The notes under the pieces were generated by a model. It was not told the origin of the DNA. It saw only the letters and a program-made list of their open reading frames with translations, and ran no database searches. A stretch of DNA of 59,855 nt, taken from contig SKFZ01000011.1 in the NCBI GenBank assembly GCA_007117695.1, positions 1 to 59,855 of the forward strand, in the 5' to 3' direction. This DNA is from Bacilli bacterium. Its GTDB lineage: Bacteria; Bacillota_I; Bacilli_A; RF39; UBA660. Below, one piece after another: positions 1,412 to 51,426 of the stretch. The stretch's first letter is position 1; every line of letters starts with the position of its first letter. The position numbers and the translations under genes were made by a program.

Positions 1412-1441
1412 AAAAAAAATAAAGATAAACTTTATTTTTTT
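1412..1441 (-). terminator. Intrinsic terminator after pilin-like gene
   Basis: AAAAAATAAAG / CTTTATTTTTT inverted repeat, A/T-rich and weak. Confidence 0.5.
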
Positions 1442-1784
1442 AATCACACTCACTATACACATCAAAATCATCACCTATGACTTTGATAAACCAGTCACAT
1501 TCATCAACTAAATCAGAATCTAAATATCCTTCATTTATTAATGTTGTATGGTTGATTAGTAATTCGTCATTTTCATTAACAGATCCATAATATTCTTCAA
1601 CGTAAGAAGTTGCTGCTGTTAAAACTGCAGATTCTATTGATACATCTGTATCAATAGGTTCAATATCTCCAAAATTTCTACTAATTAAAAACACGGCAAC
1701 AAATAAAGCCAGTGCTAAAACCGCAATTATAATAAATTCATCGGCTAAGCCCCATCCTCTGTTGTCTTTTAAAACTTTTTTCAT
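1440..1784 (-). CDS. Atypical type IV pilin-like protein
   Basis: Basic leader ending NRG|WGLADE, hydrophobic helix, LINEGYL motif and C-terminal Cys pair shared with the other pilins. Confidence 0.6.
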   Translation of the reverse strand: MKKVLKDNRGWGLADEFIIIAVLALALFVAVFLISRNFGDIEPIDTDVSIESAVLTAATSYVEEYYGSVNENDELLINHTTLINEGYLDSDLVDECDWFIKVIGDDFDVYSECD

Positions 1785-1792
1785 ACTACCTC

Positions 1793-2452
1793 CTAAAACA
1801 AATCTCTTTCTTTAATATTTTCTTTAAAGCTATATAGCTTTGCCGGTCTTCCTGTTTGTGATTCATTTTTGTAGCCAGTATCTTCTATTAACCCCAAATT
1901 AATAAACTTTTTTCTAAAATTTCTTCGATCAAATTTTTTGCTTAATATTTGCTCATATGTTCTTTGAATCTCAGGTAATGTGAAATCACTTGGAAACAAT
2001 TCTTTCAAAACGGTACTATTAACTAATTTCTTCTTCAAGTACTCTCTTGATTCTTCTACTATTTGTAAATGGTCAAAACCTACTTTAGGCAAATTATCAA
2101 TGTCAAACCATTCATATTCATATAAAGTTTCTTCTTGCTTAATTCCTACCGTTGTACTATTTATTAATCCTACATAGTTAATTCCAATAACTCTGTTATC
2201 AATGTTTCTATCTAGTTTTGTATAAACATTATACTGCTCATATGAAATTTCTTCTAGACCTACAACACTTAAAAGAATTTCTTTAATTACATCACTATCT
2301 TCTTCATCTTCTTTTATGTTTTCAGTTGGCAAAACCCAATAGTTTTTATAAGGTTCATCTTTTTTCTTAACCATAAAAACTTTTACTGTCCCTTCGCTAA
2401 CAGTAAATAAAGTTAAGATTAATTCAACTATATTTTTTTGTTGAGTTTTCAT
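1793..2452 (-). CDS. nrtR: NrtR-family regulator (degenerate Nudix + winged HTH)
   Basis: N-terminal Nudix fold with GFDH motif and degenerate Nudix box; C-terminal FTLPEIQRTYE...DRRNFRKK...GRPAKLY. Confidence 0.85.
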   Translation of the reverse strand: MKTQQKNIVELILTLFTVSEGTVKVFMVKKKDEPYKNYWVLPTENIKEDEEDSDVIKEILLSVVGLEEISYEQYNVYTKLDRNIDNRVIGINYVGLINSTTVGIKQEETLYEYEWFDIDNLPKVGFDHLQIVEESREYLKKKLVNSTVLKELFPSDFTLPEIQRTYEQILSKKFDRRNFRKKFINLGLIEDTGYKNESQTGRPAKLYSFKENIKERDLF

Positions 2453-2472
2453 AAAAATTCACCTAATTTCTT

Positions 2473-2521
2473 TGTGTTTGCTCTACACACTTATTTTATT
2501 ACTTTTAGCAAGCAATGTCAA
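2473..2521 (-). promoter_or_regulatory. Sigma-A promoter of nrtR with NrtR-type operator
   Basis: TTGACA (2516-2521), 17 nt, TAAAAT (2493-2498), then palindrome TGTGT-N7-ACACA (2473-2489) matching the GT-N7-AC NrtR core. Confidence 0.7.
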
Positions 2522-2546
2522 ATGAAAAAGACAGCATTGCTGTCTT
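2522..2546 (-). terminator. rpoC terminator overlapping the stop codon
   Basis: AAGACAGCA-N-TGCTGTCTT inverted repeat followed by a T-rich tract on the minus strand. Confidence 0.75.
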
Positions 2547-5500
2547 AATCTAACAATTCTTTTTCAAGAGCTTCTAAAGGTTCATCTTTTAATAAATCAA
2601 TTTCCAAATCAAACTCTGGCTTTTTGTACTTCTTAGCACCTGTACCAGCTGGAATTAATTTACCAATTATAATGTTTTCTTTTAAACCTTCTAAGTGATC
2701 AACTTTACCTTGAATTGCAGCATCTGTTAACATTCTTGTCGTTTCTTGGAAAGACGCTGCTGATAAGAACGATTCAGTTTCTAATGATACTTTAGTAATA
2801 CCACTTAATACTGGTTTACCTTTAGCTGGAATTTTTCCTTCTAAAATAATATTCTTATTCTCGTTTGTAAATATTCCAATATTAACAGTTGTTCCTGGCA
2901 ACATTTTTGTTGAACCCGGATCTGTAATTTTAATTCGAGAAATCATTCTTCTAGCAATTATCTCAATATGCATATCAGCAACATCAACACCTTGAGATCT
3001 ATATACTTTTTGAATTTCTGAAATTATATATTTTTGAACTGCTAAAGGATTTGTAACTGCAAGCATTTCCTTTGGACTAATTGCCCCTTGGTTAAGCTTT
3101 TGGCCTGCTTCTACTTTATCACCTTTTTTAACAATTAATTTAGCTCCATAATTTGTAACGTGTTCTTTAGTCTCAACATCGTTTTTAATAGTTACAACAT
3201 GTCTACCTTTATCTTCATCAATTTCGATTACTTCACCAGTAATTTCGGCGATTGTCGATTTACCTTTAGGGTTTCTAGCCTCAAATAACTCTTCTACTCT
3301 AGGTAAACCTTGAGTAATGTCATCACCTGCAACACCACCAGTGTTAAAAGTTCTCATCGTTAGCTGTGTACCTGGTTCACCAATAGACTGAGCCGCTATA
3401 ATACCAACAGCTTCGCCTACTTCAACCACATTACCTGTAGCATGATTAATTCCGTAACATTTTTGACAAACACCACGATCTACTTTACAAGTTAATACAC
3501 TTCTAATAGGTACTTTTTTAATGTCTGCATTAATTATTTTATCAGCTAATCTTTCAGTTATAAAAGTATTTGCCTCAATTAATACATCTTTAGAACTTGG
3601 ATCTATAATGTTTTTCCAAGTGTACCTTCCAATAATTCTTTCTTTTAACGTTTCTACTACTGTACCATCTTTATCATTGTATATGGTTTCAGCTACAATA
3701 CCCTCGGTTGTTCCACATTCTTCGCTTTTAACGATCATGTCTTGAACTACGTCTACTAATCTTCTAGTTAAATAACCTGCTTCAGCAGTTTTTAAAGCTG
3801 TATCTGCCGCACCTTTTCTAGTACCATGAGTAGATGTAAAGAATTCTGTTACTGTAACACCTTCTGTAAATGATGATGTAACAGGAATCTCAATAAATTT
3901 ACCTGATGGTTTATTAAATAGTCCACGCATACCTGCTAGCTGGTTATAATAACTAATATTACCACGAGCTTTTGATCTAATCATAATAGAAACAGGATTA
4001 TCAACATCATTAATAATTATTTCTTCTAATTCTTTTTCTATTGTATCTTTTGTTTCTGTCCATACTTCAACAACTTTAGCACTACGTTCAACATCTGTTA
4101 TTAACCCACGCTTAAAGTGTTTATTAATTTTTTCAACTTTACCTTGTGATTCAATTAATAATTCTTGTTTCTTTTTACTTTCTTTAACATCAGTTATCGC
4201 AATAGAAATACCTGATAATGTAGAATATTTAAATCCTAAATCTTTCATTTTATCAAGCATTGATGATGTTTCAGCTGTTTGATATCTTTTATATATTTGG
4301 GCAATTATATCGCCAAGTTTTCCTTTACCAAATGGTTCATTAATTGGCATATTAGCAATATGCTCTTTTAAATTAATACCTCTACCAACAAAACACTCTG
4401 CAGGTGTAATGTTTTCGATATTTTCCACAGTTCCAACATTAATAAATTGGAATGTATCTGGAAAAACCTCATTAAATATAATTTTCCCAGGCGTAGTTAC
4501 TAAATATTGATCTTTATATACTTCTGGAAATAACTTATATTTAAATGATTTGATTGGCAAAGCAATCCTTGCATGAAGACTTATTTCTTTTCTTTCATAC
4601 GACATAATTACTTCATTAGAATCTTTAAACACTCTTCCTTCACCTAATGCGCCTGCTTTTTCCATAGTTAAGTAATAATTACCTAAAACCATATCTTGAG
4701 CTGGCGTAACAATTGGTTTACCATCTGTTGGTTTCAAAATATTGTTTGAACCAAGCATTAATATTCTAGCCTCAGCTTTTGCTTCTTCTCCAATTGGAAC
4801 GTGAACCGCCATTTGGTCACCATCAAAGTCCGCATTAAATGCTGGACACACTAGTGGATGAAGCCTAATTGCTCTTCCGTTAATCAATTTTGGTTGGAAT
4901 GCTTGAATACCAAGTCTATGAAGAGTTGGCGCTCTATTAAGTAAAACTGGATGTTCTTGGATTTTTTCCTCTACAACATCCCAAACTCTTGGATCTTGAT
5001 TCTCAATCATTCGCTTAGCTGCCTTAATGTTAGATGCTAATTCTCTAGCCATCAATCCATTAATAACATGTGGTTTGAAAAGTTCAAGTGCCATCTCTTT
5101 TGGAATACCACATTCATACATTTTCAATGTAGGTCCAACAACAATAACAGAACGTCCCGAATAATCAACACGTTTACCTAGTAAGTTTTGACGGAAACGA
5201 CCTTGCTTACCTTTTAACATGTTAGAAAGTGATTTAAGCGGCCTATTTCCTGGACCAGTAATGTTTTTACCACGTCGTCCATTATCAAATAATGCATCCA
5301 CTGCTTCTTGAAGCATTCTTTTTTCATTTTGAATAATGATAGATGGTGCTCCAAGTTCAAATAACTTTTTCAATCGGTTATTTCTATTAATAACTCTTCT
5401 ATATAAATCATTTAAGTCACTTGCTGCAAACCTTCCACCATCAAGTTGAATCATCGGTCTAAGTTCAGGCGGTATAACCGGAAGTGCTCTTAAGATCATC

Positions 5501-9887: not shown

Positions 9888-9985
9888 TGATCCACCCCTA
9901 TAACTATAATTTTGTTCAGAAATACTCTATTAAAAATAAAAAGCATGTCACCAATATATAATGTTACCAAAGAAAAAGCAATCTG

Positions 9986-10573: not shown

Positions 10574-10598
10574 ATGTCACCCTTTATAAAACGCTTAA

Positions 10599-10626: not shown

Positions 10627-10647
10627 ATAAAGTTTATGTTTTTAAAA

Positions 10648-14879: not shown

Positions 14880-16955
14880 TTAATTATTTAATTCTTCTTT
14901 TTCCTTTTTCATATCAAGTGTAGCTTCATTTATAGCATCATCAATAGTTTTTATACCATTTTCAATCATACTATAACCTACTGCAGCACCAAAGTTATGA
15001 GAAATATTTTTTAACTCTTTTTGAATTTTCTTAACATATGATGATACTTGCTTATCTTCATGGCCTACCATGTAAACTAAAAATTCATTTCCATCTGTTC
15101 TTACAATTTCACTATTTTCCACTTGCGTTGTAATTAAAACATTCGCCGCCTCTTTAATGATTTTATCACCTTCTTGATGACCATAATTATCATTAACATA
15201 AGCCAAGTTATTTAAATCTATTATCACAATCGACTGTGGATAAACTTCTGACTCATCCCATGCTTCAACATTTTCAGATAAGTAATTTCTATTTTTAAGT
15301 GATGTCAACATATCAATATACTTTAACTTATCCCCTTTATTAATAGTCTTTTTCTTAGAACTACTCATTTCTCTTATTTTAGCATTTATAAAATAACCAA
15401 TAATTGAAAGGAGCAATAAATATCCTAAATAATTAAAAACTACGACTACATAATTTGGTGTTTCTATTGCAATTAAATCTGACATAACCCCTGATTTGTA
15501 GCTATTAATATTTGTTCCATCTACATAAAATGATAAAAATTCATTAAAAACTTCATTATCACTAATATCTCTAAAAACATAATTATTATTAGAACTAGAA
15601 CTTCCGACATATAATACGTCATATAAATTTAATTCGTTTTTATTTAAGTAATTAAAAGTATTATAATCTAAGGCTAAAACACTTTCACTATCTAAGTTAG
15701 AAAGCAGATCAGATACAGTATCAAAACTAGTAACTGAAATATCTGAATTATTTAAATATTCATAAACACTTGTATCAGAAATAGAAAGCACTTCATGTCC
15801 ATTTAACGAATTAATATTACTAATCGTATAATCATTTGAAATCTCGCTTACTAAAACAAATTTATCCTCAAACAACTTTGAAGATCTAACCACATCTAAA
15901 TTATAATCCACTTCTTTCAAATTATCATAATAAAAATCTATTTCGTTTGCATTAAATGCATTAATAATTTGTTCATTATTTTCAAAAACTCTAAACTCAA
16001 CTTCAACGTCTGCTAAACTTCTAAAACTGCTTATCAAGTTATAGTGAAAACCTCTATATATTTCAAAAGGCTGAGTCTCAAAATAAAATTGATTTTCTAA
16101 AACACCAATAATATACCTTTTACTTCTAAAATCCGCTCTTTCTTGACTACCGATATCTTTAAATAAAAAGTAGTCACTTGAATAGTTTATGTTAAAAGAG
16201 TTAATGAAGTTTTGACTTCTCCAATTTTCAAAATACTTAGTTATTATATTATTCAAACGATCTTCTTCACCTAAAGTAATAACATAATCTTGGGTCATGT
16301 CATAAATTTTGTATGACACATCTAAATCATCATTAGACACTATTAACTCTAAACTATGGATAAAAGGTAAAATTATTGCATCAACCGTACTTTCCCCTTC
16401 ATCATCTTCATCTTCAAAACCACTATAAGCTTCTAACATTTCGTCTATTGTACCATAAGCACTAAAACTAATATTGCTTGCCCCTTTAAAGCTATCGTTA
16501 GCTTTAGACAAGTAATCATCTAAAACAGCAATTTCAATATCTTCTATTTCTTTAACATTATTAAAACTCCCTAAATTAGATAATAATACAAAGTGATCTT
16601 GATAAACTAATATATCATCATCACTTTTGTTGTTAACAACTTTAAATGAGTAGTCACTTTGAATATTTATTGATGACCTATGAGATGACTTGTTAAAATT
16701 TAGTGTCACTTCCTCTTCTAAATCGTTGAAAAAATCAAACATAACACCCTGGCCATCTCTACTAAATACTGGAACATTGTTTAAAATTCCAAAATCAAAA
16801 ACACGACTTCTATTACTTTCTACCCACTGTCTTTCAACAAGAGTTAAACTGGTATCAGAGTCTTCTCTAAACATAATTGTATATATAGCCAGTGCTGCTA
16901 GTATTAAAAATGCAATACTGGATATAATTATTATTTTTTTATTTTTTTTCTTCAT
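14880..16955 (-). CDS. Membrane sensor with extracellular solute-binding-like domains and degenerate GGDEF domain
   Basis: Two TM segments; C-terminal DMLTSLKNRN, IDLNNLAYVNDNYGHQEGD, RTDGNEF. Confidence 0.85.
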   Translation of the reverse strand: MKKKNKKIIIISSIAFLILAALAIYTIMFREDSDTSLTLVERQWVESNRSRVFDFGILNNVPVFSRDGQGVMFDFFNDLEEEVTLNFNKSSHRSSINIQSDYSFKVVNNKSDDDILVYQDHFVLLSNLGSFNNVKEIEDIEIAVLDDYLSKANDSFKGASNISFSAYGTIDEMLEAYSGFEDEDDEGESTVDAIILPFIHSLELIVSNDDLDVSYKIYDMTQDYVITLGEEDRLNNIITKYFENWRSQNFINSFNINYSSDYFLFKDIGSQERADFRSKRYIIGVLENQFYFETQPFEIYRGFHYNLISSFRSLADVEVEFRVFENNEQIINAFNANEIDFYYDNLKEVDYNLDVVRSSKLFEDKFVLVSEISNDYTISNINSLNGHEVLSISDTSVYEYLNNSDISVTSFDTVSDLLSNLDSESVLALDYNTFNYLNKNELNLYDVLYVGSSSSNNNYVFRDISDNEVFNEFLSFYVDGTNINSYKSGVMSDLIAIETPNYVVVVFNYLGYLLLLSIIGYFINAKIREMSSSKKKTINKGDKLKYIDMLTSLKNRNYLSENVEAWDESEVYPQSIVIIDLNNLAYVNDNYGHQEGDKIIKEAANVLITTQVENSEIVRTDGNEFLVYMVGHEDKQVSSYVKKIQKELKNISHNFGAAVGYSMIENGIKTIDDAINEATLDMKKEKEELNN

Positions 16956-16965
16956 CTTTTATCAC

Positions 16966-17436
16966 CTATAATTCAATGTTATTAGTCCATATAAACTCAC
17001 TGCCTGTATGGTGCTTATAACCTATTGCTGGAAAATTTTCGTTTTCAGCATCCTCACTTTTTAAAAATAATTGTATATCATAAAAATTTAAAACTTCTTC
17101 GTCTTCAGCAAAGAATTCTAATAATTCATCTGCAAATAAAACTGCATCAGAAATGATTGTTTCGTCTGAAAATGAAACTGTAATATTTATAATTCTTCCA
17201 TAAATATTAGTATTAAAAGAAAGTATTTCTTCTTTTTCTAAAACTTCCTCTTTAAAATCGTCTAAATAAGTAGTGTCAATCCTAACATTTTCTATGCCGT
17301 CTAACCTACTTCCGTATCTACTTTGATTATTAGTATGATATATAAATACAAAGAAGACAAACAACACTATTGATAATAATATTAAGAATAGTGCAAGCAA
17401 TATCATTTGTAATTTATATTTTTTAATAAAATTCAT
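16966..17436 (-). CDS. Hypothetical single-TM membrane protein
   Basis: 156-aa ORF with RBS, N-terminal TM helix, acidic ectodomain. Confidence 0.75.
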   Translation of the reverse strand: MNFIKKYKLQMILLALFLILLSIVLFVFFVFIYHTNNQSRYGSRLDGIENVRIDTTYLDDFKEEVLEKEEILSFNTNIYGRIINITVSFSDETIISDAVLFADELLEFFAEDEEVLNFYDIQLFLKSEDAENENFPAIGYKHHTGSEFIWTNNIEL

Positions 17437-17486
17437 AATTCACCTCGACGTTTAAGATTATACTATATTAGTTTTTTTTTATCAAA

Positions 17487-18899
17487 TTATTGTTTTTTTA
17501 ACTCTTGACTCAACAATTTACTAGCAAGTCCAGGATTAACTTGCCCCTTAGTTTCTTTCATTACTTGTCCCATTAAATATTTAAAAGCTTTATCCTTACC
17601 ATCTTTATAATCTTTAATAGCACCTTCATTTTTGTTTAAAACTTCTTTTATTATTTTTAAAACCGAATCTTCATCGCTGATTTGCTTAATAGATAAGTCA
17701 TCCATAATTTTATTTATATCATCTACTTTTTCTAAAAAAACAGGAATAATATCTTTTACATGTTTCGAAGAAATAGTATTATTATCTACTAATTCAACTA
17801 TCTTCTCAAACCTTGATATATCAAAATTAGTTTTTTCTAAAGAAATACTTTTTTCATTTAAATAGCCTGAAACATCACCTGTTAAAATATTGCTTGCTTT
17901 AACAAAATTAACACAATCACCTAAATTTAACATTACAAATGCAAGCTCCTTATTTAATAAGAGTGCTTCAATGTTTTTAGGGTTAATACCCTTTTTGGAA
18001 AATAAAGTTTTCATTTCCTTCGGTAACATAGGCATTTTTTCTTTGATTTTATCGATCTCTTCATCTGTAATATGAACAAAAGGAATATCTGGTTCTGGAA
18101 AATACCTATAATCGTTATTTTTTTCTTTAACTCTCATAGAAATAGTTTTTTTGTTAACATCATCAAATCTTCTAGTTTCTTCTATAACAGTTCCATTGCT
18201 TTCTAAAATCTCTTGTTGTCTTTTTATTTCATATGATATAGCATTACCTACATTAGTAATAGACCCAATATTTTTTACTTCTACCTTGTTACCTAAAACT
18301 TCATCCTTGCTCAAAGAAACATTAGCATCACACCTTAGACTACCTTCTTCCATTTTAACGTCAGATATCCCAAGGTATAACAATATATTTCTTAATTCTT
18401 TTACATATTGCATCGCTTCTTTTTCACTTTTGATATCTGGCTTAGTAACAATTTCTACTAAAGGACATCCAGCTCTATTAAAATTTAAATAAGTAGAATC
18501 TCCCACATGCTTACTTTTAGCTGTGTCTTCCTCAATATGAATTCTCTCAATTCTTATTTTTTTTGTTTCACCAGAAACTTCAATTTCAACATAACCATCG
18601 AACCCTATTGGAGTTTTATTTTGGGTTATTTGATACCCTTTAGGAAGGTCTGGATAAAAATAATTTTTTCTATCAAAATGCATGACCTTATTTATATTAC
18701 AATTTAATGCAAGCGCTGCTGCTAGGGCCATATCAATAACATCTTTATTAAGTTTAGGTAATGTACCGGGCATTCCTAAGTCTCTTTCATTAACGAAAAT
18801 GTTTGGTGTATCACTATATGAATTTTTACTGTTTGAAAAAACTTTCAAATCACTAGTTAAAAAAGCATGAACTTCTATTCCAATAGTTGCTTTATACAT
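17487..18899 (-). CDS. gatB: Asp/Glu-tRNA amidotransferase subunit B
   Basis: IGIEVH, FDRKNYFYPDLPKGYQITQ, LRCDANVS, YRYFPEPD. Confidence 0.98.
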   Translation of the reverse strand: MYKATIGIEVHAFLTSDLKVFSNSKNSYSDTPNIFVNERDLGMPGTLPKLNKDVIDMALAAALALNCNINKVMHFDRKNYFYPDLPKGYQITQNKTPIGFDGYVEIEVSGETKKIRIERIHIEEDTAKSKHVGDSTYLNFNRAGCPLVEIVTKPDIKSEKEAMQYVKELRNILLYLGISDVKMEEGSLRCDANVSLSKDEVLGNKVEVKNIGSITNVGNAISYEIKRQQEILESNGTVIEETRRFDDVNKKTISMRVKEKNNDYRYFPEPDIPFVHITDEEIDKIKEKMPMLPKEMKTLFSKKGINPKNIEALLLNKELAFVMLNLGDCVNFVKASNILTGDVSGYLNEKSISLEKTNFDISRFEKIVELVDNNTISSKHVKDIIPVFLEKVDDINKIMDDLSIKQISDEDSVLKIIKEVLNKNEGAIKDYKDGKDKAFKYLMGQVMKETKGQVNPGLASKLLSQELKKQ

Positions 18900-20643: not shown

Positions 20644-20997
20644 TTAGTACTCTATTTCATATTTATGCGAACCATTAACATTAGTTATTATAACTCTTAA
20701 ATCTCCTGGAAATGGCTCGTCAGTTTTTGGGTTTATCAAATCTCTTCTAACATAATTACCTTGAACTAGTTGATCAAAGTAAACCTCATAACTATCACCA
20801 TGAAATCTAGGTAGTTCATTAACATGATCTGCTTCCCAGTTTTTAGTAGAATCAATAATAGTTCTCTTAGCACTTTCATATGCAACTTCATCACTTCTAG
20901 TTATAAACCTATCAACCGTAGGAACCACAATAAGTGCGACTATTCCTAAAATAACTATTACACCTAATAACTCGACTAATGAAAAACCTTTTTTCAT
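20644..20997 (-). CDS. Type IV pilin-like protein (ComGC-like core)
   Basis: Start re-placed at MKKG|FSLVELLGVIVILGIVALIVVP (class III signal peptide); QLVQGNY...INPKT. Confidence 0.9.
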   Translation of the reverse strand: MKKGFSLVELLGVIVILGIVALIVVPTVDRFITRSDEVAYESAKRTIIDSTKNWEADHVNELPRFHGDSYEVYFDQLVQGNYVRRDLINPKTDEPFPGDLRVIITNVNGSHKYEIEY

Positions 20998-21013: not shown

Positions 21014-21070
21014 ATTTTATCACTTATAGCAATTAAAGACAATAAAAAAGAAAGGTTACTCACCTTTCTT
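21014..21070 (-). promoter_or_regulatory. Compact terminator plus sigma-A promoter upstream of pilin/gatCAB
   Basis: AAGAAAGGT/ACCTTTCTT hairpin across the ytxH-like stop, T-run, then TTGTCT-17-TAAAAT with TG extension. Confidence 0.7.
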
Positions 21071-25765: not shown

Positions 25766-25802
25766 AATACTCCTCCTATAAAAAAAGCTCACCGAAGTAA
25801 GC

Positions 25803-26372: not shown

Positions 26373-26425
26373 AAAAATCACTCCACTCTAATATTCATTT
26401 TACTATATTAAATATTAATACGCAA

Positions 26426-26450
26426 TAAAAAAGAAGGTTTTTACCTTCTT
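26426..26450 (-). terminator. Terminator overlapping pilin-CLec stop codon
   Basis: AAGAAGGT-N4-ACCTTCTT plus T-run on minus strand. Confidence 0.7.
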
Positions 26451-27817
26451 GAAATAGTTAACCTATATGCTTCATCACTACTACCACCACCGGTAGAGTT
26501 AGAATAATCAAGCATTTCACTTACTCCTCTTACTAAAAAAGGTCTTGGTCCTGTTAAGAAATCTTTACTGCCACCATGAAATGTATTAGTTTCTGATAAT
26601 CCATGACCATAACAAATATTTCCACGACAAGCTTGGTCTATATTGTCGCTAGTGTAATTATCATAAAACTTATCCTCTGGAAAAGGACTAAGTAATGAAC
26701 CCCCTATTCGTTTATTGTAACTACTCATTACAAAGTCACTAGGAAGCCCCACCATATTATATACCCCATATTCGTTATTAGTTGTTGAACCACCAACGCT
26801 TATAGAAGAAGAATCGATGCCATATTCTGATTGTGCTAAATAAGAAATTGCAGCCCATTCAGTATTTTTTTGAACTCTAGTACTTAATGTTCCGCTTGGA
26901 AATCCATACGGATTATTCGATGAATTCATACTTGATACTAAAGTATATAAAGTATTTACAGATTGATTAGTTATTACAGAATCTGTACTCTTGCTTGTAA
27001 TTAAATCTAAGTCGCCTGTTAATTGATACTTAGAAGCCCAAAACCCTCTTAAACTCTTTTCTCCAAAAGTAAAAGCAGGATGAACTCGATAACCTTGGCC
27101 TTCTACTGGCGAAGAGACAAATGGTGCACCTTTAACAAATTCAATATCTATTGGATTTTCTTCAACTTTATACTTAAATCTAGGTATCCAAACAAGCTCC
27201 AATAAAATATGATCATTATCAATTATTTCTCCCGGCTCTACATTTAAATAATTGTCCTTGTGAGCTTCATGAACTACTACAGCATTTGCCCAAATACTAT
27301 TTTCATAATCATACCATGGACTTGAATCTGGATTTCGATTATCTGCTTTAACTATATTTGCCCCTTCATATCTAATTGGAATCATCCCTTTATGAAGGTA
27401 AGGTCTGTTTGCAAAACTTGAATCAGCATTCTCAATACAAGGTGCATCATAAAGCCTAACTATATGAGTTTCTATTGGTTTATACGCACACCACTTATCA
27501 AATTCAATTAAAACATCGATATCCCCATCTTCATTAACTACAATTTCACCTACCCCAGTTACCGAACCGCTTATTGGTATGCTAGGTGAAATCGAATCTT
27601 CACTATTACCATCAATTTCATATACTTGATAAATACCAAAGCCACGGCTTGCCTTATCAAGTTCAACTGCATGTACTAGTCCATTAACACTATCCAGGAA
27701 TGATTCTTTTCGCGAGTTATCTATTACACCTCTTATTATCGGTGTAGTAATTCCTGCGATTATTCCTAAAATAACAATTACTGCTAAAAGCTCAACTAGT
27801 GTAAAACCTTTTTTCAT
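26441..27817 (-). CDS. Type IV pilin N-terminus fused to a putative FGE-type C-type-lectin-fold domain
   Basis: MKKG|FTLVELLAVIVILGII; C-terminal VWIPRF, HPAF, GFWASKY, NTEWAAISYL, STTNNEYGVYNMVG, FLVRG...AYR. Confidence 0.8.
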   Translation of the reverse strand: MKKGFTLVELLAVIVILGIIAGITTPIIRGVIDNSRKESFLDSVNGLVHAVELDKASRGFGIYQVYEIDGNSEDSISPSIPISGSVTGVGEIVVNEDGDIDVLIEFDKWCAYKPIETHIVRLYDAPCIENADSSFANRPYLHKGMIPIRYEGANIVKADNRNPDSSPWYDYENSIWANAVVVHEAHKDNYLNVEPGEIIDNDHILLELVWIPRFKYKVEENPIDIEFVKGAPFVSSPVEGQGYRVHPAFTFGEKSLRGFWASKYQLTGDLDLITSKSTDSVITNQSVNTLYTLVSSMNSSNNPYGFPSGTLSTRVQKNTEWAAISYLAQSEYGIDSSSISVGGSTTNNEYGVYNMVGLPSDFVMSSYNKRIGGSLLSPFPEDKFYDNYTSDNIDQACRGNICYGHGLSETNTFHGGSKDFLTGPRPFLVRGVSEMLDYSNSTGGGSSDEAYRLTISRR

Positions 27818-31306: not shown

Positions 31307-31330
31307 AAAACAAAACCTTAGTTTTGTTTT
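31307..31330 (-). terminator. Terminator after pilin-LamG gene
   Basis: AAAACAAAAC-N4-GTTTTGTTTT inverted repeat. Confidence 0.65.
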
Positions 31331-32846
31331 ATCTCAAACTTGACAGATACAATTGATTTGCTTCCTGCTGATCAAATGATCTATCAAATATCATCACATC
31401 ATCTAAAAAGCCTTGATACATATAATTACTCATATAACTTAATGACCACTGGCCGATTAATAACATCTCAGCATCAAAATCAACTTCCTTCGGTAATGTA
31501 GCGTTGTTATCATGCTTTCCATTAATATAAAAATCAACTTGATTTGAACTTTCAATATATGTAACTACTATGTGCTGCCATTCATTAAAGATCACTGATG
31601 AGTTACTTCTAGTGTCATTATATTCTCTGGTCCCATCTGTATAACCAACTGATAAAGTAATATTATCATTATGGAGGTTAACACCTAAGTTAGTTGTTTG
31701 ACTATGATTATGAAGCGTAACAAGACCTTGCAATCCAGTATTAACTTCTGGCTTCATCCAAAAAGCAAAAGTTTGATCCCCTGATAAATCTAATTCTAAA
31801 TCAGATCTAATATATTTATTCTGACCATCAAAATAATATGATCCTCTACCTAATTTACTATCCTCAACCCACTTAGGAGTATTATTTAAAATTAATGTTG
31901 AATTGAAAATTTCATTTACATTATTAACTATGGTGTCTTCTCTTACACCTTCAACAAAAGGTGTTGCTTTGTTTTTTTGTTCTAATTGAGGAGCACAAAT
32001 CCAAGTTCTACTATTCGGATCATTAATCGGTTCAGAACTATAAAATCTATAATTTATTCTAGTTGATTCACTATGCCCCGGATTAACAAAAGAATCCCAT
32101 TCTATTCTATGCCATCTCATATCATTTGGGACACTCTTGCTCTCACCCCAGACCCTTCCATCTTCTGATGAGTCAGCAGTAAAATAAGTCACATTAAAAT
32201 CGGAATCTCTAGTTCTAACGTATAGCGTAGGCGTATATGTTTCTGAAGCTTCTTTATTTGCATTTTCTACCGTTGCATATAAAACAGGGTCCTCACCATC
32301 TCTATCGAATCCGAATGAAGTAGTACCTTTGGGACATTCAAGTTCATCATACTTTATGTTATTCATAGCATTATGATTCCAACCAGCATCAAAATTATAA
32401 TTAGTAATAATGTTTTCGGTTGTCTCAGCAAAAGTATCAAAATTATAATAAAGGACTAGTCCGAACTGTTCTGATGAATTTACATCATTATTAACGCAAT
32501 CAGTTATAGGTAAAGTTGAATAGTTAATTTCTGATACTTTAGTGAAAATTACGTAACCACTACAAACATTTCCACCATGAGGGTTAACTACTTCATTTAA
32601 AAAATTCGCTTCCTTCAACTCTAAAAAACTCACCTCAAATGATTCTCCAATTTCCAAGTTAATGTCGTTTGAAAAAGTATTCAAATAATTTTCAGCCGCC
32701 CTAATTATGTTTTTATTGTTTTCTTTGTAAGCTGTGTTCCTTGAATCTAAAATTACATTATTAACTCTCGGGATTGCAATAAGTACGATAATCCCAAGAA
32801 TAATTATAACAGCCAACATTTCAACTAATGTAAAACCTTTTTTCAT
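31329..32846 (-). CDS. Type IV pilin N-terminus fused to LamG-like jelly-roll domain
   Basis: MKKG|FTLVEMLAVIIILGII; GLVLYYNFD, YYFDG, TFAFWMKP, WQHIVVTY, FYING, GFLDDVMIFDRS. Confidence 0.9.
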   Translation of the reverse strand: MKKGFTLVEMLAVIIILGIIVLIAIPRVNNVILDSRNTAYKENNKNIIRAAENYLNTFSNDINLEIGESFEVSFLELKEANFLNEVVNPHGGNVCSGYVIFTKVSEINYSTLPITDCVNNDVNSSEQFGLVLYYNFDTFAETTENIITNYNFDAGWNHNAMNNIKYDELECPKGTTSFGFDRDGEDPVLYATVENANKEASETYTPTLYVRTRDSDFNVTYFTADSSEDGRVWGESKSVPNDMRWHRIEWDSFVNPGHSESTRINYRFYSSEPINDPNSRTWICAPQLEQKNKATPFVEGVREDTIVNNVNEIFNSTLILNNTPKWVEDSKLGRGSYYFDGQNKYIRSDLELDLSGDQTFAFWMKPEVNTGLQGLVTLHNHSQTTNLGVNLHNDNITLSVGYTDGTREYNDTRSNSSVIFNEWQHIVVTYIESSNQVDFYINGKHDNNATLPKEVDFDAEMLLIGQWSLSYMSNYMYQGFLDDVMIFDRSFDQQEANQLYLSSLR

Positions 32847-35442: not shown

Positions 35443-35515
35443 AATATCACTTCCAATCTCAATAATTATAACATAAAAAAAGCCAATAACAAAAAGCTAT
35501 CGACTTATTTTAAAA

Positions 35516-35890
35516 CTATGGTGTTTGATAACTAGCCCCGCAATTTAAAAATGGTTCATATTTAATAATACCCTCTTCATATAAAACATCTACATGACCA
35601 GTACATGGCATGTTATCATTTCTACTATCTTTTATTTCACTAATGTAACCATAATCTATAAGAATTTCTAAATCGATAGTAACAACATCAGTCTCTTCAT
35701 CAGGTAAAACTATATCTTCTGTCAAAGCATAATTTCTTGCAGCACGCTCCATCGTCTTTTCATGATTTTCATAAATACTTACTCTACTATCACTAACTAT
35801 TCTATTAGAAATAGTAGTAGTAATTAATGCAATAATCCCAATAATTATTATTACTCCAAGCAACTCAACTAGCGTAAACCCCTTTTTCAT
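35516..35890 (-). CDS. Type IV pilin-like protein
   Basis: Start re-placed at MKKG|FTLVELLGVIIIIGII; LIDYGYI and Cys pair CTG...FLNC. Confidence 0.9.
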   Translation of the reverse strand: MKKGFTLVELLGVIIIIGIIALITTTISNRIVSDSRVSIYENHEKTMERAARNYALTEDIVLPDEETDVVTIDLEILIDYGYISEIKDSRNDNMPCTGHVDVLYEEGIIKYEPFLNCGASYQTP

Positions 35891-35930
35891 ATTATCACCT
35901 AGTAAAAGTATATCACAAAAAAAGCAAGAA

Positions 35931-35960
35931 AAAAACAAACTTAAATTAAGTTTGCTTTTC
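35931..35960 (-). terminator. Terminator after pilin paralogue A
   Basis: CAAACTTAA-A-TTAAGTTTG inverted repeat with T-run on minus strand. Confidence 0.6.
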
Positions 35961-35972
35961 TAGATAACATTA

Positions 35973-36353
35973 CTAATCTTCGCATGCTTCTTGATGATCG
36001 TTCATTCTTCCGCTGCTCTCACGCTGGAATCCGAAACCATTAACACAAAATTCTGCATCCGCATCAATTTCACCATCAGTGATAGGAACATTCATTTTAT
36101 CAGGTGCTGTACCTTGAATGTCAATGTTGCTGTTTTCATCGTAAACTGCTGGTATTTCTTCTTGAGCCAGAATTTTTAAAGCAACGTCATGCTCAATAGC
36201 TTTAACTGTACCATAAGCAGCATTTCTTGCAGAACCTTTTCTAGCCTCCTCAATCGAGTTCATTACAACCGGAGTTGCAATTAATGCGATTACAGCTAAA
36301 ATTACGATTACAGCTAATAATTCGATTAATGTAAAACCTTTATTATTTTTCAT
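35973..36353 (-). CDS. Type IV pilin, paralogue A (major-pilin candidate)
   Basis: MKNNKG|FTLIELLAVIVILAVIALIATP; C-terminal Cys pair; AAAGGGGT RBS. Confidence 0.92.
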   Translation of the reverse strand: MKNNKGFTLIELLAVIVILAVIALIATPVVMNSIEEARKGSARNAAYGTVKAIEHDVALKILAQEEIPAVYDENSNIDIQGTAPDKMNVPITDGEIDADAEFCVNGFGFQRESSGRMNDHQEACED

Positions 36354-36470
36354 TCTTTTCTTACCCCTTTCTATTATATAATATATCATACTATGTGATA
36401 TAAAATCAATATGTTTTGTACTCATTTACACAAAACAATCAATTTGACTTAGAATTTTACACTTATAAGA

Positions 36471-36902
36471 TTATGGAGTTTCACAATAATCATCGTCATC
36501 TTCGTGATCTACTCTAAAATCTCCACCTGATTGAAGTGCTGCAGAATATTCATCAATACACATTCCGCCACCACTAATTTCGTTGTTAGTGAATTCTAAT
36601 CTTAAAATTGATGGAATAGTTCCTTGAATATCAAAACTATCATCAAATTCTTCAATACCTTCATAATTGTAAATGTCGGCATTTTCTTCGCCATGGATCT
36701 GAAAATCCGGCTCTTCTAATACTCTTATAGCAATATCATGTTCAACTGATTTAACAACTCCATAAGCTGTGTTTCTCGCAGAACCTCTTCTTGCCTCCTC
36801 GATTGAATTCATTACAACTGGTGTTGCAATTAATGCGATTACTGCTAGTATTACTATTACTGCTAGTAATTCGATTAATGTGAAACCTTTTTGGTTTTTC
36901 AT
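36471..36902 (-). CDS. Type IV pilin, paralogue B (major-pilin candidate)
   Basis: MKNQKG|FTLIELLAVIVILAVIALIATP; C-terminal Cys pair. Confidence 0.92.
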   Translation of the reverse strand: MKNQKGFTLIELLAVIVILAVIALIATPVVMNSIEEARRGSARNTAYGVVKSVEHDIAIRVLEEPDFQIHGEENADIYNYEGIEEFDDSFDIQGTIPSILRLEFTNNEISGGGMCIDEYSAALQSGGDFRVDHEDDDDYCETP

Positions 36903-36986
36903 TATTCTAATACCCCCTTCTATAATACAATGCTAACAAATATAAAAAGAGGTTTCAAGGGTGAGAAAAAATTTATACACTGTTTG

Positions 36987-37481
36987 TCACTTTAATTTTC
37001 CAAACCCATTTAACGGATATATTCTAAAACTAGTTCTACCTATAATTTCACTATCATTTACAAGGCCTATCGTCCTACTGTCAAGAGAATTATCTCTATT
37101 ATCACCTAATACAAAATAATAATTGTCCGGTATTGTTTCATGGCCTAGTAAATCAATTGAATAATTACCAGTAGCCCCGAAATTAAAAATATCATCGACT
37201 GAGTCAGAATTGACATATAAACTATCATTTTCATATTCGATGTGTTCACCCGGTAGTCCGATAATTCTTTTTACAAGTTTTTGGCCATCAGTGTCGACAA
37301 CAACAATATCAAATCTATTTAAATTTCTGTATCTTTTATTCAATAATAATACTTCACCATCATTTAATGTCGGCTCCATTGATATGCCATTTACTCTAAC
37401 AGGTGTAACTATTAAAGTTCTAATTAGTACTACCACTATAAAAACTATTACATATGGATATACAGTTTTTAAAATTTTCAT
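36987..37481 (-). CDS. lepB: Signal peptidase I
   Basis: GISMEPTL (Ser), LVKRIIGLPG (Lys), GDNRDNSLDSR. Confidence 0.96.
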   Translation of the reverse strand: MKILKTVYPYVIVFIVVVLIRTLIVTPVRVNGISMEPTLNDGEVLLLNKRYRNLNRFDIVVVDTDGQKLVKRIIGLPGEHIEYENDSLYVNSDSVDDIFNFGATGNYSIDLLGHETIPDNYYFVLGDNRDNSLDSRTIGLVNDSEIIGRTSFRIYPLNGFGKLK

Positions 37482-37497
37482 ATACATCACCTATATA

Positions 37498-37527
37498 AAA
37501 AATAAGACTAAATTTAGTCTTATTTTT
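37498..37527 (-). terminator. 30-bp perfect palindrome over the rplS stop; probable terminator
   Basis: AAAAATAAGACTAAA|TTTAGTCTTATTTTT. Confidence 0.7.
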
Positions 37528-37864
37528 CTTGTCTTTCTTTTATTTTCGGCTGTTTAACTAAATCTCTAATATAATTTAATTTAGCTCTTCTTACTTTACC
37601 TTTTCTTAAAACAGTAATTGAGTCAATTTTTGGTGAATTCATTGGAATAGTTCTTTCTACACCAACTCCTCCTGAAACTTTTCTAACTGTAAAAGTTTGA
37701 CTTACACCACCACTTTGAATCGCCATTACTAGCCCTTCAAATGCCTGGATTCTTTCTCTAGTACCTTCCTTAACTTTAAGATCTACTCTAATAGTATCTC
37801 CTACTCTAAATTCAGGTAAGTCTGTTCTAATTTGATCTTTAGTAATTTTACTTATCAAATCCAC
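37520..37864 (-). CDS. rplS: 50S ribosomal protein L19
   Basis: [21 protein letters not shown]. Confidence 0.99.
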
Positions 37865-37889
37865 AATGTCACTCTCCTTTTCTTTAAAC

Positions 37890-37921
37890 TTTGATCTTGA
37901 ACATATTTTCAGCGGATCAAG
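37890..37921 (-). ncRNA. Probable L19 leader
   Basis: Minus strand TTGATCCGCTGAAAATATGTTCAAGATCAA hairpin containing CCGCTG upstream of the rplS RBS. Confidence 0.55.
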
Positions 37922-40326: not shown

Positions 40327-40333
40327 AATCTTT

Positions 40334-42375: not shown

Positions 42376-42385
42376 GTAACACCTC

Positions 42386-43117: not shown

Positions 43118-43118
43118 T

Positions 43119-44383: not shown

Positions 44384-44399
44384 TATTTAGCCCCCTTTT

Positions 44400-45833: not shown

Positions 45834-45963
45834 AAAATCACCCCCTACATAGACATTTTACTATTTTTATCTAAACTTTACAACGATTTTAAACATTTTT
45901 ATTTTTTGTCATTTTTATTTAATAAAAAAATATTTCGTGCTATAATTTTAAGTAGGTGATAAT

Positions 45964-47905: not shown

Positions 47906-47918
47906 ATCAATACTTTTT
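47887..47918. repeat. Copy 2 of the palindrome (32 bp here); probable bidirectional terminator between convergent genes
   Basis: AAAAAGTATTGATTTA|TAAATCAATACTTTTT; left arm encodes GatD KSIDL*. Confidence 0.9.
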
Positions 47919-47922
47919 TTAT

Positions 47923-50900
47923 TTAATTACTAAAGTGTGTAATTGAACAAGTTCTACTTGTATTTGTTTCTCTTCCGGTATTATTTCTTATTTGAATATT
48001 TTGAATTGTTACAGTTCCAGCTGGTGCACTATGTGACGGGATACTCCAGGTTAAAAGTGATGAGGTTGTTGAAGATCTAGTCACACCATCAAATCTTGCT
48101 GAATAACGTGCAATACCACTCGAGCTAGAGGCACTAAAATTAACTCTAAATTGTTGACTAACAGAATGATAACTACAAGTAACTGAATTAATAGTTGGAA
48201 TAGTATTATCTATTCTAAACCCTCCTGATGAAGTCATCCTACAATTTCCAGCACCATCACAAAGTCTAGCCCATAAATATCTAGTACCTTGAATCGCCGA
48301 ATTATATGTTCTTGTTGTACCGCTTGTATGATTGTATATAATTGATGAAGAAGATGGCGATGATGATGATGCCCAAATATATCTAAAAGTATTAGTTCCA
48401 CTTATTCCAGGACTACCTGACAATACTGTGCTATGACTAGTACTCCACGTACTATTTGAATTTGGTGAATAAGTTATAGTTGGTGTTACTCTGTCAATTC
48501 TAAATCTTCCGCTTGTTACTGTATTAGTATTTCCAGCATTATCTTCTACTTGAACTTGTACCCTATAAGTACCTGAACCAGATAAGTTTCGATTAACTGA
48601 CGTTGATGTTGAATAACTTGACCATGATCCATAACTAGAACCATCATTTGTTGATGTTCTTATTCGCATTCTTCTATATCCTGAACCTCCACTATCACTT
48701 CCAGTAACAGTGACGGTAACTGCACTATTTCCCCATGAAGTCTGGCTACTTGGTGAAAAACTCACAGTTGGTGAAGTTTTATCTATTCTATATCTTCCAC
48801 TTGTTACTGTTCTAGTGTTTCCAGCATTATCTTCGACCTCTACTTGTATTCTATTTATACCAGTACTACTTAATGTTCGATTAACTGAAGTTGAGGTTGA
48901 ATAGCTTGACCAAGATCCATAACTAGAACCATCATTAGATGATGTTCTTATTCGCATTCTTCTATATCCTGAGCCTCCACTATCACTTCCAGTAACGGTA
49001 ACAACAACATTACTGTTACCCCACGAAGAACTCGTTGGTGAGAAACTAACATTAGGATTAGTTTTATCTATTCTTACATGTGCTGTTGATGATGCTGAAC
49101 CAGTGTTTCCAGCATTATCTACAACTCTTGCTTGTATTTCTATATTTGTTGTAGATGAATATGTAATAGATGATGAATAATTTGTCCATGATCCCCAAGA
49201 ACCACCTGAAGGTCTTGTTCGATATTGATATCTATCTCTACCTGACGGACCTGCGTTTCCACCACTTATTGATATTGTTCTATTTCCATTTGTCCAAGTT
49301 GTACTTCCTCCACTTATTGACGGAGCAGTTGGATTAGTTTGGTCTATTCTATATACCCCACTAGTTAATGTTGATACATTACCTGCATGGTCTTCTACTT
49401 GAACTTGAATTCTATGTTCTCCAGAACCGGATAAAGTTCTGCTAGTAGAAGATGATGTTGTATAACTTGACCATGATCCATAACTAGAACCATTATTTGA
49501 TGAAACTCTAGTTCTCATTCTTCTATATCCTGAACCACCACTATCACTGGCTGATATCGACACACTTACATTATTATTATTCCATGATGTTTGACTATTG
49601 GGCGAGAAACTTGCGGTTGGAGCTGTTTGATCTACTCGGTATGGACCACAATCAACTACTCTAGGATTATTTGCATTATCAATTGCTTCAATGTTTACTC
49701 TATGAGTTCCATTAGATGAAAATGTTTGTGTAAAGCTTCCCGCTCTATTTGTCCATGATCCCCAACTAGAACCATTATTAGAAGATGTTCTACTTCTAAC
49801 ACTTGATAAGCCCGATAAAGAATCTGAGACACTAACAGATACAGAAACATTACTATTGCCCCATGAAGTACTTGTAGGCGAACACGATACAGAAGGGTTT
49901 GTTCTGTCTATTCTAATATATCTAGTTGATGTAGCCGAACCTGTATTACCAGCGTTATCTATGATTCTTGCTTGTATTTCTCTATCCATTTCTGAATCAT
50001 ATGTAATAGAAGATGAATAATTTGTCCATGATCCCCAAGAATCGCCAGACAGTCTTGTTCGGTATTGATATCTATCTACTCCCGATGGACCTGGGTTTCC
50101 ACCACTTATTGATATTGTTCTACTTCCGTTTGTCCATGAAGTACTTGCACCACTTATTGATGGGGCTGTTGGAATATCTTTGTCTATCAATAATGATCTC
50201 ATAGAACTTGCTTCAGACACATTTCCTTCATAGTCAATGGCTCTTAAGCATAGTTCATCTTCTCTTGTAGTATTAAATGTAATTGGATTAGTATATTCTT
50301 GCCATGTTGGATTAGTAGCATCACAGTTTAAAGTATATTCATACCTATCAACACCTACTCCAATATCATTTGCTTCAACATTTCCTAGCCAAACATTTTC
50401 ATTCGTCCAACTGCTATCATACATTGAACCACTACTATTGTTTAACCTAAGTTCAAAAGTTGGTACAGTTGGTGGTGTTGTATCTTCAATTTCTACATTT
50501 AATGAAAGACTCCTTTCATTGCCATACCAATCACTTACAGTATATGTTAGGCTATATTGCCCAACCATGTGCAAATCCAAATTAGTAGTTACGACAACTT
50601 GATCTAGATCAAACAGTTCAACATCACATCTATTAATAGATGGGTCTTCTTCATCACAACTATTGTCATTTAAATTCATATCTGGAATCGAAAAAGCATG
50701 TCCCGCTTCGTGTACAATGCTTGATGGCCTTGTGCTTTCAAGTATTTCTATTGTTGGACTCGTTGTATCATCAACTTTTAAATATACTATTTCTTCTGTT
50801 TCTAACTTTAAATTTTCATCAACCACTCTATATAAAATTTCATAATCATACGGATTTGACTTTTCACTTAAAACATTAGTTTCAATGCTTCTTACTATTT

Positions 50901-51426
50901 CACCTTCATCATTTTTTATTAATGGACCTATGACATTTAGAGGATTTCCCAAATAGTCTGTTGCACTAACCTCAGGAAGAACATATCTCTCATTTACTTC
51001 TACAGTTTGATTTGTGCCACCCGATATAGAAATTATTGGCATGTATGATTCAGATGCAGTATCACAATCATCTTCAGTATAATCAAAATTGTATTGACTA
51101 TAATCTTCGTTATAAGTAACTACAATACAACCTTTTAACTCTTCATTAGTTCTAGGATCGATTATTTCATCGGTATTTATAATTCCCTCTGCTTTAAAAC
51201 GGTCTATATCAAAAAAGAATATTCCCTCTTGATCAACAGGTAAAGAGTTAATATTTTCAATTGACCAACCTCTTAAGCTACTCTCTAATCTTTCTATTTG
51301 TTCATAATATAATCTTTCTTTTGTTCTTTCTATACTATAATTTATAGACAGTACCGACACAGTTGAAATTATTGCAATAACTATTATTACAGCTAGCACT
51401 TCTATTAAAGTAAATCCTTTTTTCAT
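47923..51426 (-). CDS. Giant type IV pilin-anchored protein with tandem Ig-like repeats
   Basis: MKKG|FTLIEVLAVIIVIAII; two DUF5011-like Ig domains (ATDYLG, LTYTVSDWYGN); ~92-96-aa repeats ending DNAGN...RIDxTxP. Confidence 0.9.
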   Translation of the reverse strand: MKKGFTLIEVLAVIIVIAIISTVSVLSINYSIERTKERLYYEQIERLESSLRGWSIENINSLPVDQEGIFFFDIDRFKAEGIINTDEIIDPRTNEELKGCIVVTYNEDYSQYNFDYTEDDCDTASESYMPIISISGGTNQTVEVNERYVLPEVSATDYLGNPLNVIGPLIKNDEGEIVRSIETNVLSEKSNPYDYEILYRVVDENLKLETEEIVYLKVDDTTSPTIEILESTRPSSIVHEAGHAFSIPDMNLNDNSCDEEDPSINRCDVELFDLDQVVVTTNLDLHMVGQYSLTYTVSDWYGNERSLSLNVEIEDTTPPTVPTFELRLNNSSGSMYDSSWTNENVWLGNVEANDIGVGVDRYEYTLNCDATNPTWQEYTNPITFNTTREDELCLRAIDYEGNVSEASSMRSLLIDKDIPTAPSISGASTSWTNGSRTISISGGNPGPSGVDRYQYRTRLSGDSWGSWTNYSSSITYDSEMDREIQARIIDNAGNTGSATSTRYIRIDRTNPSVSCSPTSTSWGNSNVSVSVSVSDSLSGLSSVRSRTSSNNGSSWGSWTNRAGSFTQTFSSNGTHRVNIEAIDNANNPRVVDCGPYRVDQTAPTASFSPNSQTSWNNNNVSVSISASDSGGSGYRRMRTRVSSNNGSSYGSWSSYTTSSSTSRTLSGSGEHRIQVQVEDHAGNVSTLTSGVYRIDQTNPTAPSISGGSTTWTNGNRTISISGGNAGPSGRDRYQYRTRPSGGSWGSWTNYSSSITYSSTTNIEIQARVVDNAGNTGSASSTAHVRIDKTNPNVSFSPTSSSWGNSNVVVTVTGSDSGGSGYRRMRIRTSSNDGSSYGSWSSYSTSTSVNRTLSSTGINRIQVEVEDNAGNTRTVTSGRYRIDKTSPTVSFSPSSQTSWGNSAVTVTVTGSDSGGSGYRRMRIRTSTNDGSSYGSWSSYSTSTSVNRNLSGSGTYRVQVQVEDNAGNTNTVTSGRFRIDRVTPTITYSPNSNSTWSTSHSTVLSGSPGISGTNTFRYIWASSSSPSSSSIIYNHTSGTTRTYNSAIQGTRYLWARLCDGAGNCRMTSSGGFRIDNTIPTINSVTCSYHSVSQQFRVNFSASSSSGIARYSARFDGVTRSSTTSSLLTWSIPSHSAPAGTVTIQNIQIRNNTGRETNTSRTCSITHFSN
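48484..50172 (-). repeat. Intragenic repeat array with A-B-B / A-B-B order, ~280-aa period
   Basis: A units (TAPSISG..WTNG..RYQYRTR) start near 50172 and 49332; B units (SFSP..SDSGGSGYRRMR) near 49896, 49620, 49056, 48771; long identical DNA stretches between units. Confidence 0.9.

Follow-up and report, generated by a model that had tools for sequence, protein, structure and literature searches.

A probable repertoire of about 30 type IV pilin-family genes, with modular members scattered among housekeeping genes, in a 0.55-Mb Bacilli genome

Why do eight genes with pilin-like N-termini lie scattered among the housekeeping genes of a single stretch of bacterial DNA? The question is raised by the complete 59,855-bp contig SKFZ01000011.1 (C2; hereafter the window) of assembly GCA_007117695.1, which comes from a Bacilli bacterium of the lineage RF39, UBA660. 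The assembly comprises 547,906 bp in 31 contigs, with a completeness of 81%, a contamination of 0.69%, and a G+C content of approximately 30%, and almost all genes of the window are encoded on its minus strand. A preliminary description of the window had proposed a dispersed set of type IV pilin genes with swappable cargo, and all eight open reading frames exist at the starts it had given, each on the minus strand. It was concluded, with a probability of about 0.6, that these genes (p1 to p8) are real members of the type IV pilin family within a repertoire of approximately 30 genes, and that the modular ones, in which a pilin module precedes a large additional domain, are minor subunits on one filament made by a single machinery. 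The direct basis of this reading consists of sequence signatures, predicted folds, the presence of machinery genes, counts, and synteny; from these we infer that the proteins are cleaved and co-assembled, with a location at the tip and a role in adhesion, and that genes are co-transcribed.

The N-termini of seven genes, all but p1, consist of a basic leader of 4–6 residues ending in Gly, the motif F-(T/S)-L-(V/I)-E, and approximately 20 hydrophobic residues. All seven passed the N_methyl model PF07963 (22.2–40 bits against a cut-off of 21.2), four small genes tested with TIGR02532 scored 25.1–35.3 bits against a cut-off of 16.3, and the whole-genome N_methyl scan marked exactly p2 to p8 on this contig. 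The class III (prepilin) N-terminus, which had been read in eight genes with KG↓F(T/S)LxE in seven (the arrow marks the cleavage site), was therefore confirmed for p2 to p8; p1 failed the model, yet it proved homologous to pilin modules, as described below. Four of the genes are small prepilins, namely, p2 (20644..20997, 117 aa, MKKG↓FSLVE), p5 (35516..35890, 124 aa), p6 (35973..36353, 126 aa, MKNNKG↓FTLIE), and its paralogue p7 (36471..36902, 143 aa), which has the top N_methyl score of the genome. The modular prepilins are p3 (26441..27817, 458 aa), p4 (31329..32846, 505 aa), and p8 (47923..51426, 1167 aa). In alignments, an L..(G/N)(Y/F/I) motif is shared by p1 (1440..1784, 114 aa), p2, p4, p5, and p8, and p3, p6, and p7 form a second type of pilin module. 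These five had been credited with a ComGC-like core; the shared motif stands, but the ComGC label was not supported, as matches of window genes to the NCBIfam ComGC model were confined to the N-terminus and reached 19.6–29.8 bits against a cut-off of 75. In all genes of the window but p2, which is without any Cys, the pilin module closes with a Cys pair, as had been noted for seven genes.

Predicted structures were obtained for two of the genes. The AlphaFold model of p3 (48-sequence alignment, predicted local distance difference test score (pLDDT) 89.2) has a helix at residues 7–58 and a small sheet, followed by a large cargo domain, and that of p7 (pLDDT 84.6) is lollipop-shaped, with a helix at residues 9–63 and a four-stranded sheet. 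When the p7 model was compared with solved structures by VIA-align, nine of the top 20 rows were type IV pilins or pseudopilins, at weak Z scores of at most 4.6, and Foldseek gave no match in the PDB at E ≤ 0.001. When p3, p7, and p4 were searched by sequence against the PDB, the matches were confined to the N-terminal helix of known pilins, and a first scan of the genome contigs with p3 as the query confirmed no relative. The genes p6 and p7 have the best N_methyl scores and stand in tandem, as do their closest homologues, which lie on short contigs. Their family comprises 5548 matches, and for 3 among the 120 matches listed, a source gives the name PilA. The p6/p7 type is our best guess, from sequence, at the major pilin.

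In the case of p1, the N-terminus reads MKKVLKDNRG↓WGLADEF, so that cleavage after G10 would leave W1 and D5. No match to p1 was found in Pfam or NCBIfam, and a word-index homologue search returned only p1 itself. An exhaustive phmmer search of 1.84 billion representatives (E ≤ 0.001) returned 24 sequences, namely, the query, one spurious repeat protein, and 22 relatives. The 16 relatives that were aligned with p1 are 108–150 aa long, and the aligned proteins keep N(R/K)G↓WG, the hydrophobic stretch, an L..EG(Y/F) motif, and the Cys pair. On comparing the profile of this family with a profile of ten canonical pilin modules from the same genome, hhalign gave a probability of 99.0% and an E value of 2.8e-18 over 116 columns, the globular part included, while the single p1 sequence reached just 72%. 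Since the family profile matches the canonical pilin modules of the genome, p1 is regarded as a pilin-family gene in which the class III signal takes a variant form. Two further variants were found with a relaxed pattern, at C17:10592-11074 (HG↓IALID) and at C18:10951-11466 (KG↓FLLIE, adjoining the assembly ATPase gene). Pilin counts based on Pfam overlook such variant signals, which make up 3 of the 31 full-length genes of this genome, and the N(R/K)G↓WGL variant is a concrete family to annotate.

Across the genome, the N_methyl hidden Markov model and an independent regular expression returned the same 28 canonical prepilin genes in 0.55 Mb. Together they encode 12,043 aa, corresponding to 6.6% of the 547,906 bp, and they are spread over 24 separate runs on 14 contigs; eight are small and cargo-free, and about 20 are modular. 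With the three non-canonical genes and one pilin gene with LamG cargo that is truncated at its 5' end, the repertoire amounts to about 32. The leader has four residues in 18 of the 28 canonical genes, and G-1, F1, and E5 are strictly kept in all of them. This invariance, the Pfam scores above cut-off, and the fact that so small a genome has retained a gene for a bifunctional-type A24 peptidase argue against the view that the N-termini are uncleaved signal anchors merely resembling class III signals. That view would fit the degenerate N-termini of some related genes, such as MKKG↓VIGGL on an LRR_5 protein of contig C17, and the W1 and D5 of p1, and we regard it as very improbable. The LRR_5 (BspA-type) proteins that lack a canonical prepilin signal lie at C17:33464-35388, and the start quoted above resembles a decayed class III signal. 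A preference of contig breaks for pilin genes was considered and rejected, as prepilin genes harbour 4 of the 62 contig ends, the number to be expected from 6.6% coverage; three of these four breaks fall within 62 codons of the gene start, a mild excess only.

The relatives of this genome place these numbers in context. Among 23 genomes from other genera of the family (0.8–1.3 Mb), N_methyl counts ranged from 0 to 33 (median 8), and the same-genus genome used for comparison, which is 52% complete, had 9; the present genome has the highest N_methyl density among the genomes compared. In a class-wide sample of 300 genomes, matches occurred in all 34 family members, several of which had at least 26, and most other Bacilli had 0–9. 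As 28 matches in 0.55 Mb stand against 0–9 in most sampled Bacilli, the repertoire exceeds chance, and since counts vary within the family, the expansion is viewed as a patchy family trait that is extreme here. The named relatives are chiefly metagenome-assembled genomes of "uncultured Bacilli" from the animal gut.

As the preliminary description had stated, the window contains no assembly ATPase, platform protein, or prepilin peptidase. Its proposal hung on a peptidase and an ATPase being present elsewhere in the genome, and one of each, together with a platform protein, was located on contig C18. The ATPase is a 451-aa T2SSE protein (426 bits), the single one above cut-off in the genome, the platform protein has two T2SSF domains in a 654-aa frame, preceded by a stretch of approximately 250 aa, and the peptidase combines A24_N_bact and Peptidase_A24. 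Against NCBIfam, the ATPase scored 498 bits with TIGR02533 and 484 bits with TIGR02538, both under the equivalog cut-offs. The machinery genes are interleaved with rpoD, trmK, an LCP gene, mutS, nusB, and xseAB, and three more modular pilins, with LRR_5, Fib_succ_major, and immunoglobulin (Ig) cargo, lie among them. A PilB-type gene was present in 30 of 30 sampled relatives. The platform frame occupies 15900-17864 of the C18 piece, and its first approximately 250 residues, hydrophobic segments and then a Lys/Glu-rich part, are either a genuine extension or an upstream in-frame region. Some relatives have extra T2SSE genes; in the single relative looked at (G041), these are TadA/VirB11-like and not PilT, one standing behind a ParA/MinD-like gene in a Tad-pilus-like arrangement and the other being of a weaker class, and neither was found in the present genome, which is 81% complete.

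A machinery of this size recalls the Com pseudopilus of monoderm bacteria (ComGA, ComGB, ComGC-GG, ComC), which likewise has one ATPase, one platform protein, one peptidase, several small pilins, and ComEC, and no retraction ATPase. The machinery might accordingly serve mainly as a Com-type pseudopilus for DNA uptake, which would be useful to a tiny genome, and most prepilins would then be unrelated to adhesion. ComEC is indeed encoded on C18, no retraction ATPase was found, and a weak ComGD-like match adjoins the ATPase. However, all three Com pseudopilus equivalog models stayed under cut-off (ComGA 265 against 300 bits, ComGB 143 against 240 bits, and ComGC as given above), and those for the ATPase and the platform protein were outscored by the PilB/GspE and PilC/GspF models. 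Moreover, Com systems are not characterised by bulky adhesin-type cargo, and DNA uptake gives no explanation for about 20 prepilins with lectin, leucine-rich-repeat (LRR), or Ig-type cargo. This explanation is judged improbable.

The cargo was examined next to the pilin modules that carry it. In Pfam, p4 carries LamG_3 (E 4.9e-21), a ConA-like lectin domain, and p8 carries a long Ig-like stalk of Big_13, Big_3_2, DUF7743, and Bact_surface_Ig-like repeats. No Pfam cargo domain was found in p3, FGE-sulfatase remaining under threshold; in Foldseek, the best matches of the p3 model were variable proteins of diversity-generating retroelements (DGRs; TaqVP 5vf4, E 2.9e-4), followed by PvdO, formylglycine-generating enzyme (FGE), Mtd, and TvpA. 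Judged by its predicted structure, the p3 cargo has the C-type-lectin/FGE fold, the same as in the DGR variable proteins and FGE (5vf4, 1yu3, 2y3c, 6xtq). The three large cargoes of the window, described earlier as C-type-lectin-like (CLec), LamG, and Ig repeats, are thus supported, two by Pfam and one by the model. The p3-type cargo family comprises 478 proteins at E ≤ 1e-5, is un-named, and is a further concrete family to annotate. The presence of TaqVP, Mtd, and TvpA among the best structural matches would suit p3 being a DGR target, but the genome, at 81% completeness, gave no RVT_1 match, and a template-like repeat of the 3' ends of two CLec genes was not found either; we give this idea almost no credence.

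Modules and cargo were found to be mosaic among the paralogues, which supports the term "swappable". Paralogues share at most 62% identity in any aligned stretch. Two genes on contig C6 that are 62% identical in the module only carry different cargo on one module type, Fib_succ_major occurs on different modules in genes of C16 and C18, and p8 and a paralogue on contig C1 are 43% identical over the full length. Genome-wide, the same kind of pilin module is followed by LRR_5, DUF285, Fib_succ_major, LamG_3, Ig-like, GLUG, or CLec/FGE-fold cargo. The prepilin helix had been proposed as a general display handle for many binding domains; the diversity of binding-type cargo on one kind of module agrees with this, but with two sortase-domain genes in the genome, an alternative display route is possible as well. 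A simple, crude regular expression found no LPXTG-type tail in 675 frames, which is a hint only. Two LamG_3 proteins (540- and 427-aa frames; C22:23205-23576 and C22:26593-27042) have plain signal-anchor-like N-termini and no prepilin signal.

The pilins of the window had also been placed inside or between conserved gene clusters, and the identity of these neighbours was verified with NCBIfam and from sequence. The gene orders are rpoC, an NrtR-like gene, p1, and rpsL; a YtxH-like gene, p2, and gatCAB; PFOR, p3, and a LemA-like gene; a sigH-like gene and, downstream, p4; rplS, lepB, p7, p6, p5, and rbgA (ylqF); and pheT, a small membrane protein, and p8. The shortest gaps are those between PFOR and p3 (7 nt, from the stop of PFOR to the start of p3), between the NrtR-like gene and p1 (8 nt), and between p2 and gatC (11 nt). 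The window has 12 terminator-like sites, compared with 4.5 ± 2.2 in shuffled sequences. Since such minus-strand hairpins lie directly 3' of p3 (26431..26450), 3' of the YtxH-like gene, a short distance upstream of p2 (21048..21070), and directly 3' of p5 ahead of rbgA (35480..35506), the units PFOR-p3, p2-gatCAB (headed by p2), and (lepB)-p7-p6-p5 are suggested, and co-transcription within them would follow. Assembled contigs from one DNA sample and one RNA run, which carried no usable signal on expression or variants, included long ones that covered p2, p3, and p4 nearly identically, whereas no long piece was among those listed for 35467-37910. The NrtR-like Nudix/helix-turn-helix regulator (1793-2452) scored 90.6 bits against an equivalog cut-off of 400 and splits the usual rpoC-rpsL neighbourhood before p1. 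The gene for a 605-aa membrane protein whose C-terminal tail is rich in Ser and Gly (23975-25792) lies directly downstream of p3, beside the LemA/MamQ-like gene (25803-26381).

To compare these placements with those in other genera of the family, a prepilin-motif regular expression was applied within 1.5 kb on each side of the anchor genes, a procedure by which divergent prepilins could be missed. The motif was found near none of 28 rbgA loci, none of 29 sigH loci, none of 29 pheT loci, and none of 29 gatA-type loci, just 8 of which are clear orthologues, and near 1 of 26 PFOR loci; tblastn found no p1 homologue near rpsL in 26 loci. In the same-genus genome, p2 has a syntenic orthologue (70% identity over 83 aa), and a pilin start directly follows PFOR. 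On this evidence, the placements in the window appear to be genus-specific, with pilin genes put, within this genus, into putative transcription units of housekeeping genes. Within 1.5 kb of the PilB-type gene, there are one or two prepilin genes in 19 of 29 relatives and in the present genome. The pattern is that of a conserved core, the ATPase with two adjacent putative minor pilins, and a variable accessory set of scattered modular pilins that were apparently placed recently. Two relatives have nothing between lepB and rbgA, and in two others unrelated genes stand there, namely, a 451-aa coiled-coil membrane protein in one genus (2354-3709 of its locus) and two unrelated small genes in another (2448-3646). 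The GatA-type matches of the family fall into two classes, at 54–64% identity (8 genomes) and 36–41% (the rest), which suggests a different amidase or a replaced GatA in some genera. Single in-frame stops (TAA or TGA) in otherwise full-length rbgA or sigH matches of three relatives (G024, G015, and G023) may reflect sequencing errors or pseudogenes.

From these observations, the following mechanism is proposed. The single A24 peptidase would cut the very short leader, mostly MKKG↓F, after Gly and methylate residue 1. The single PilB-type ATPase and the PilC-type platform protein would build a wall-crossing filament by polymerising the small cargo-free pilins, and the large modular pilins, p3, p4, and p8 with approximately 17 others elsewhere in the genome, would join it as minor subunits, probably at the tip, presenting lectin-like, LRR, or Ig modules.

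Display could also be achieved by the same proteins in the absence of a long pilus. Cleaved prepilins would then stay anchored in the membrane or form a short pseudopilus or raft, as in the type II secretion system, the Com system, or the bindosome, and the class III signal would be a sorting or anchoring device. This is consistent with the single ATPase, with PilT and PilM not having been found, and with machinery that matches GspE/GspF about as well as PilB/PilC; moreover, the long Ig stalks found in p8 and its paralogues could reach across the wall unaided, and the bindosome of Sulfolobus provides a precedent (PMC3047682). In contrast, the tandem small cargo-free pilins with top motif scores, whose large family includes the members named PilA, fit the body of a filament, and the short-cargo pilins p3 and p4 would presumably not clear the wall without a fibre. 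We consider display without a long pilus unlikely, although it deserves to be weighed seriously.

Several points weigh against the filament proposed here. To our knowledge, there is no tested precedent for approximately 20 bulky subunits on one filament. The ATPase and the platform protein score under the NCBIfam equivalog cut-offs for PilB, GspE, PilC, and GspF, and neither a PilT-type ATPase nor PilM (PilM_2) was found in the 81%-complete genome. The p7 model matches solved pilins weakly at best, the choice of the major pilin is a guess, and the sortase-domain genes offer a possible second route to the surface. As for the placement, adjacency to housekeeping genes is partly trivial, because nearly any gene in a 0.55-Mb genome neighbours them, and the motif-based synteny comparison may have passed over divergent prepilins.

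The design itself is already known under the name "modular pilins", of which InterPro holds >1,200 proteins in 264 architectures, and their presentation by a filament has been proposed (PMC8179133). The modular pilins are defined by a pilin module and a further domain that is not peculiar to type IV pilus biology, which p3, p4, and p8 all have. The principle is the same here, and architectures with PF13385 lectin cargo belong to the frequent ones of the InterPro set (PMC8179133). In its available part, that survey counts proteins and not per-genome repertoires, and describes no 0.55-Mb genome with approximately 30 prepilins (PMC8179133). The type IV pili of Streptococcus sanguinis, which have the modular minor pilins PilB (vWA) and PilC (ConA-like lectin), are a close parallel (PMC8179133, PMC9934059); this species is also monoderm, and its modular pilins likewise join a binding module to a small pilin module that has a class III signal, one of these binding modules being a ConA/LamG-type lectin like that of p4 (PMC8179133). 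The small tandem paralogous pilins of the window recall its two major pilins, PilE1 and PilE2. However, two modular pilins in S. sanguinis stand against about 20 here, which add LRR_5, DUF285, Fib_succ_major, CLec/FGE, and GLUG cargo and long Ig stalks. The S. sanguinis genes reportedly form a single pil locus, unlike the 24 runs observed here, where the leader is of four residues in most canonical genes and PilT and PilM were not found.

More distant systems share single features with this repertoire. In the Sulfolobus bindosome, class III signal peptides are found on sugar-binding proteins, so that many non-fibre binding proteins bear such a signal; the system is archaeal, its cargo consists of ATP-binding cassette (ABC)-transporter binding proteins, and it depends on a dedicated Bas system (PMC3047682). 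The episymbiotic Saccharibacteria and Patescibacteria keep type IV pili and several pilins in ultra-small genomes for attachment to host cells, but they belong to another phylum and have two distinct type IV pilus systems and twitching (PMC11623550, PMC9894109). The DGR variable proteins differ in that neither a reverse transcriptase nor a template repeat was found in this 81%-complete genome. A paper on TANB77 pilins (PMC11680825) was judged, from its available part, not to be relevant, and nothing on pilin repertoires in this lineage was found in the open-access literature. What appears to be new is the size of the repertoire for a single tiny genome, the genus-specific embedding of its genes in core operons, the division into core and accessory sets, and the G↓WGL pilin variant.

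Taken jointly, these features allow a broader and distinctly tentative reading, which we think unlikely. The type IV filament would be the main combinatorial display platform of the genus, with a single minimal PilB/PilC/PilD machine that lacks a retraction motor and with at least 20 alternative, shuffled adhesin subunits. Many of their genes would lie in core housekeeping operons (PFOR, gatCAB, lepB-rbgA, and rpoC-rpsL) and hence be expressed during growth, which would point to an obligately attached lifestyle. If this were true, an epibiotic or host-bound lifestyle would have evolved within the Bacilli in parallel to that of the Patescibacteria. If the proteins do load onto one filament, the genome would be a natural extreme case for the number of bulky subunits that a filament can carry and for the control of their choice, and attachment would be suggested to play a central part in the life of a group of small-genome Bacilli that is widespread and uncultured.

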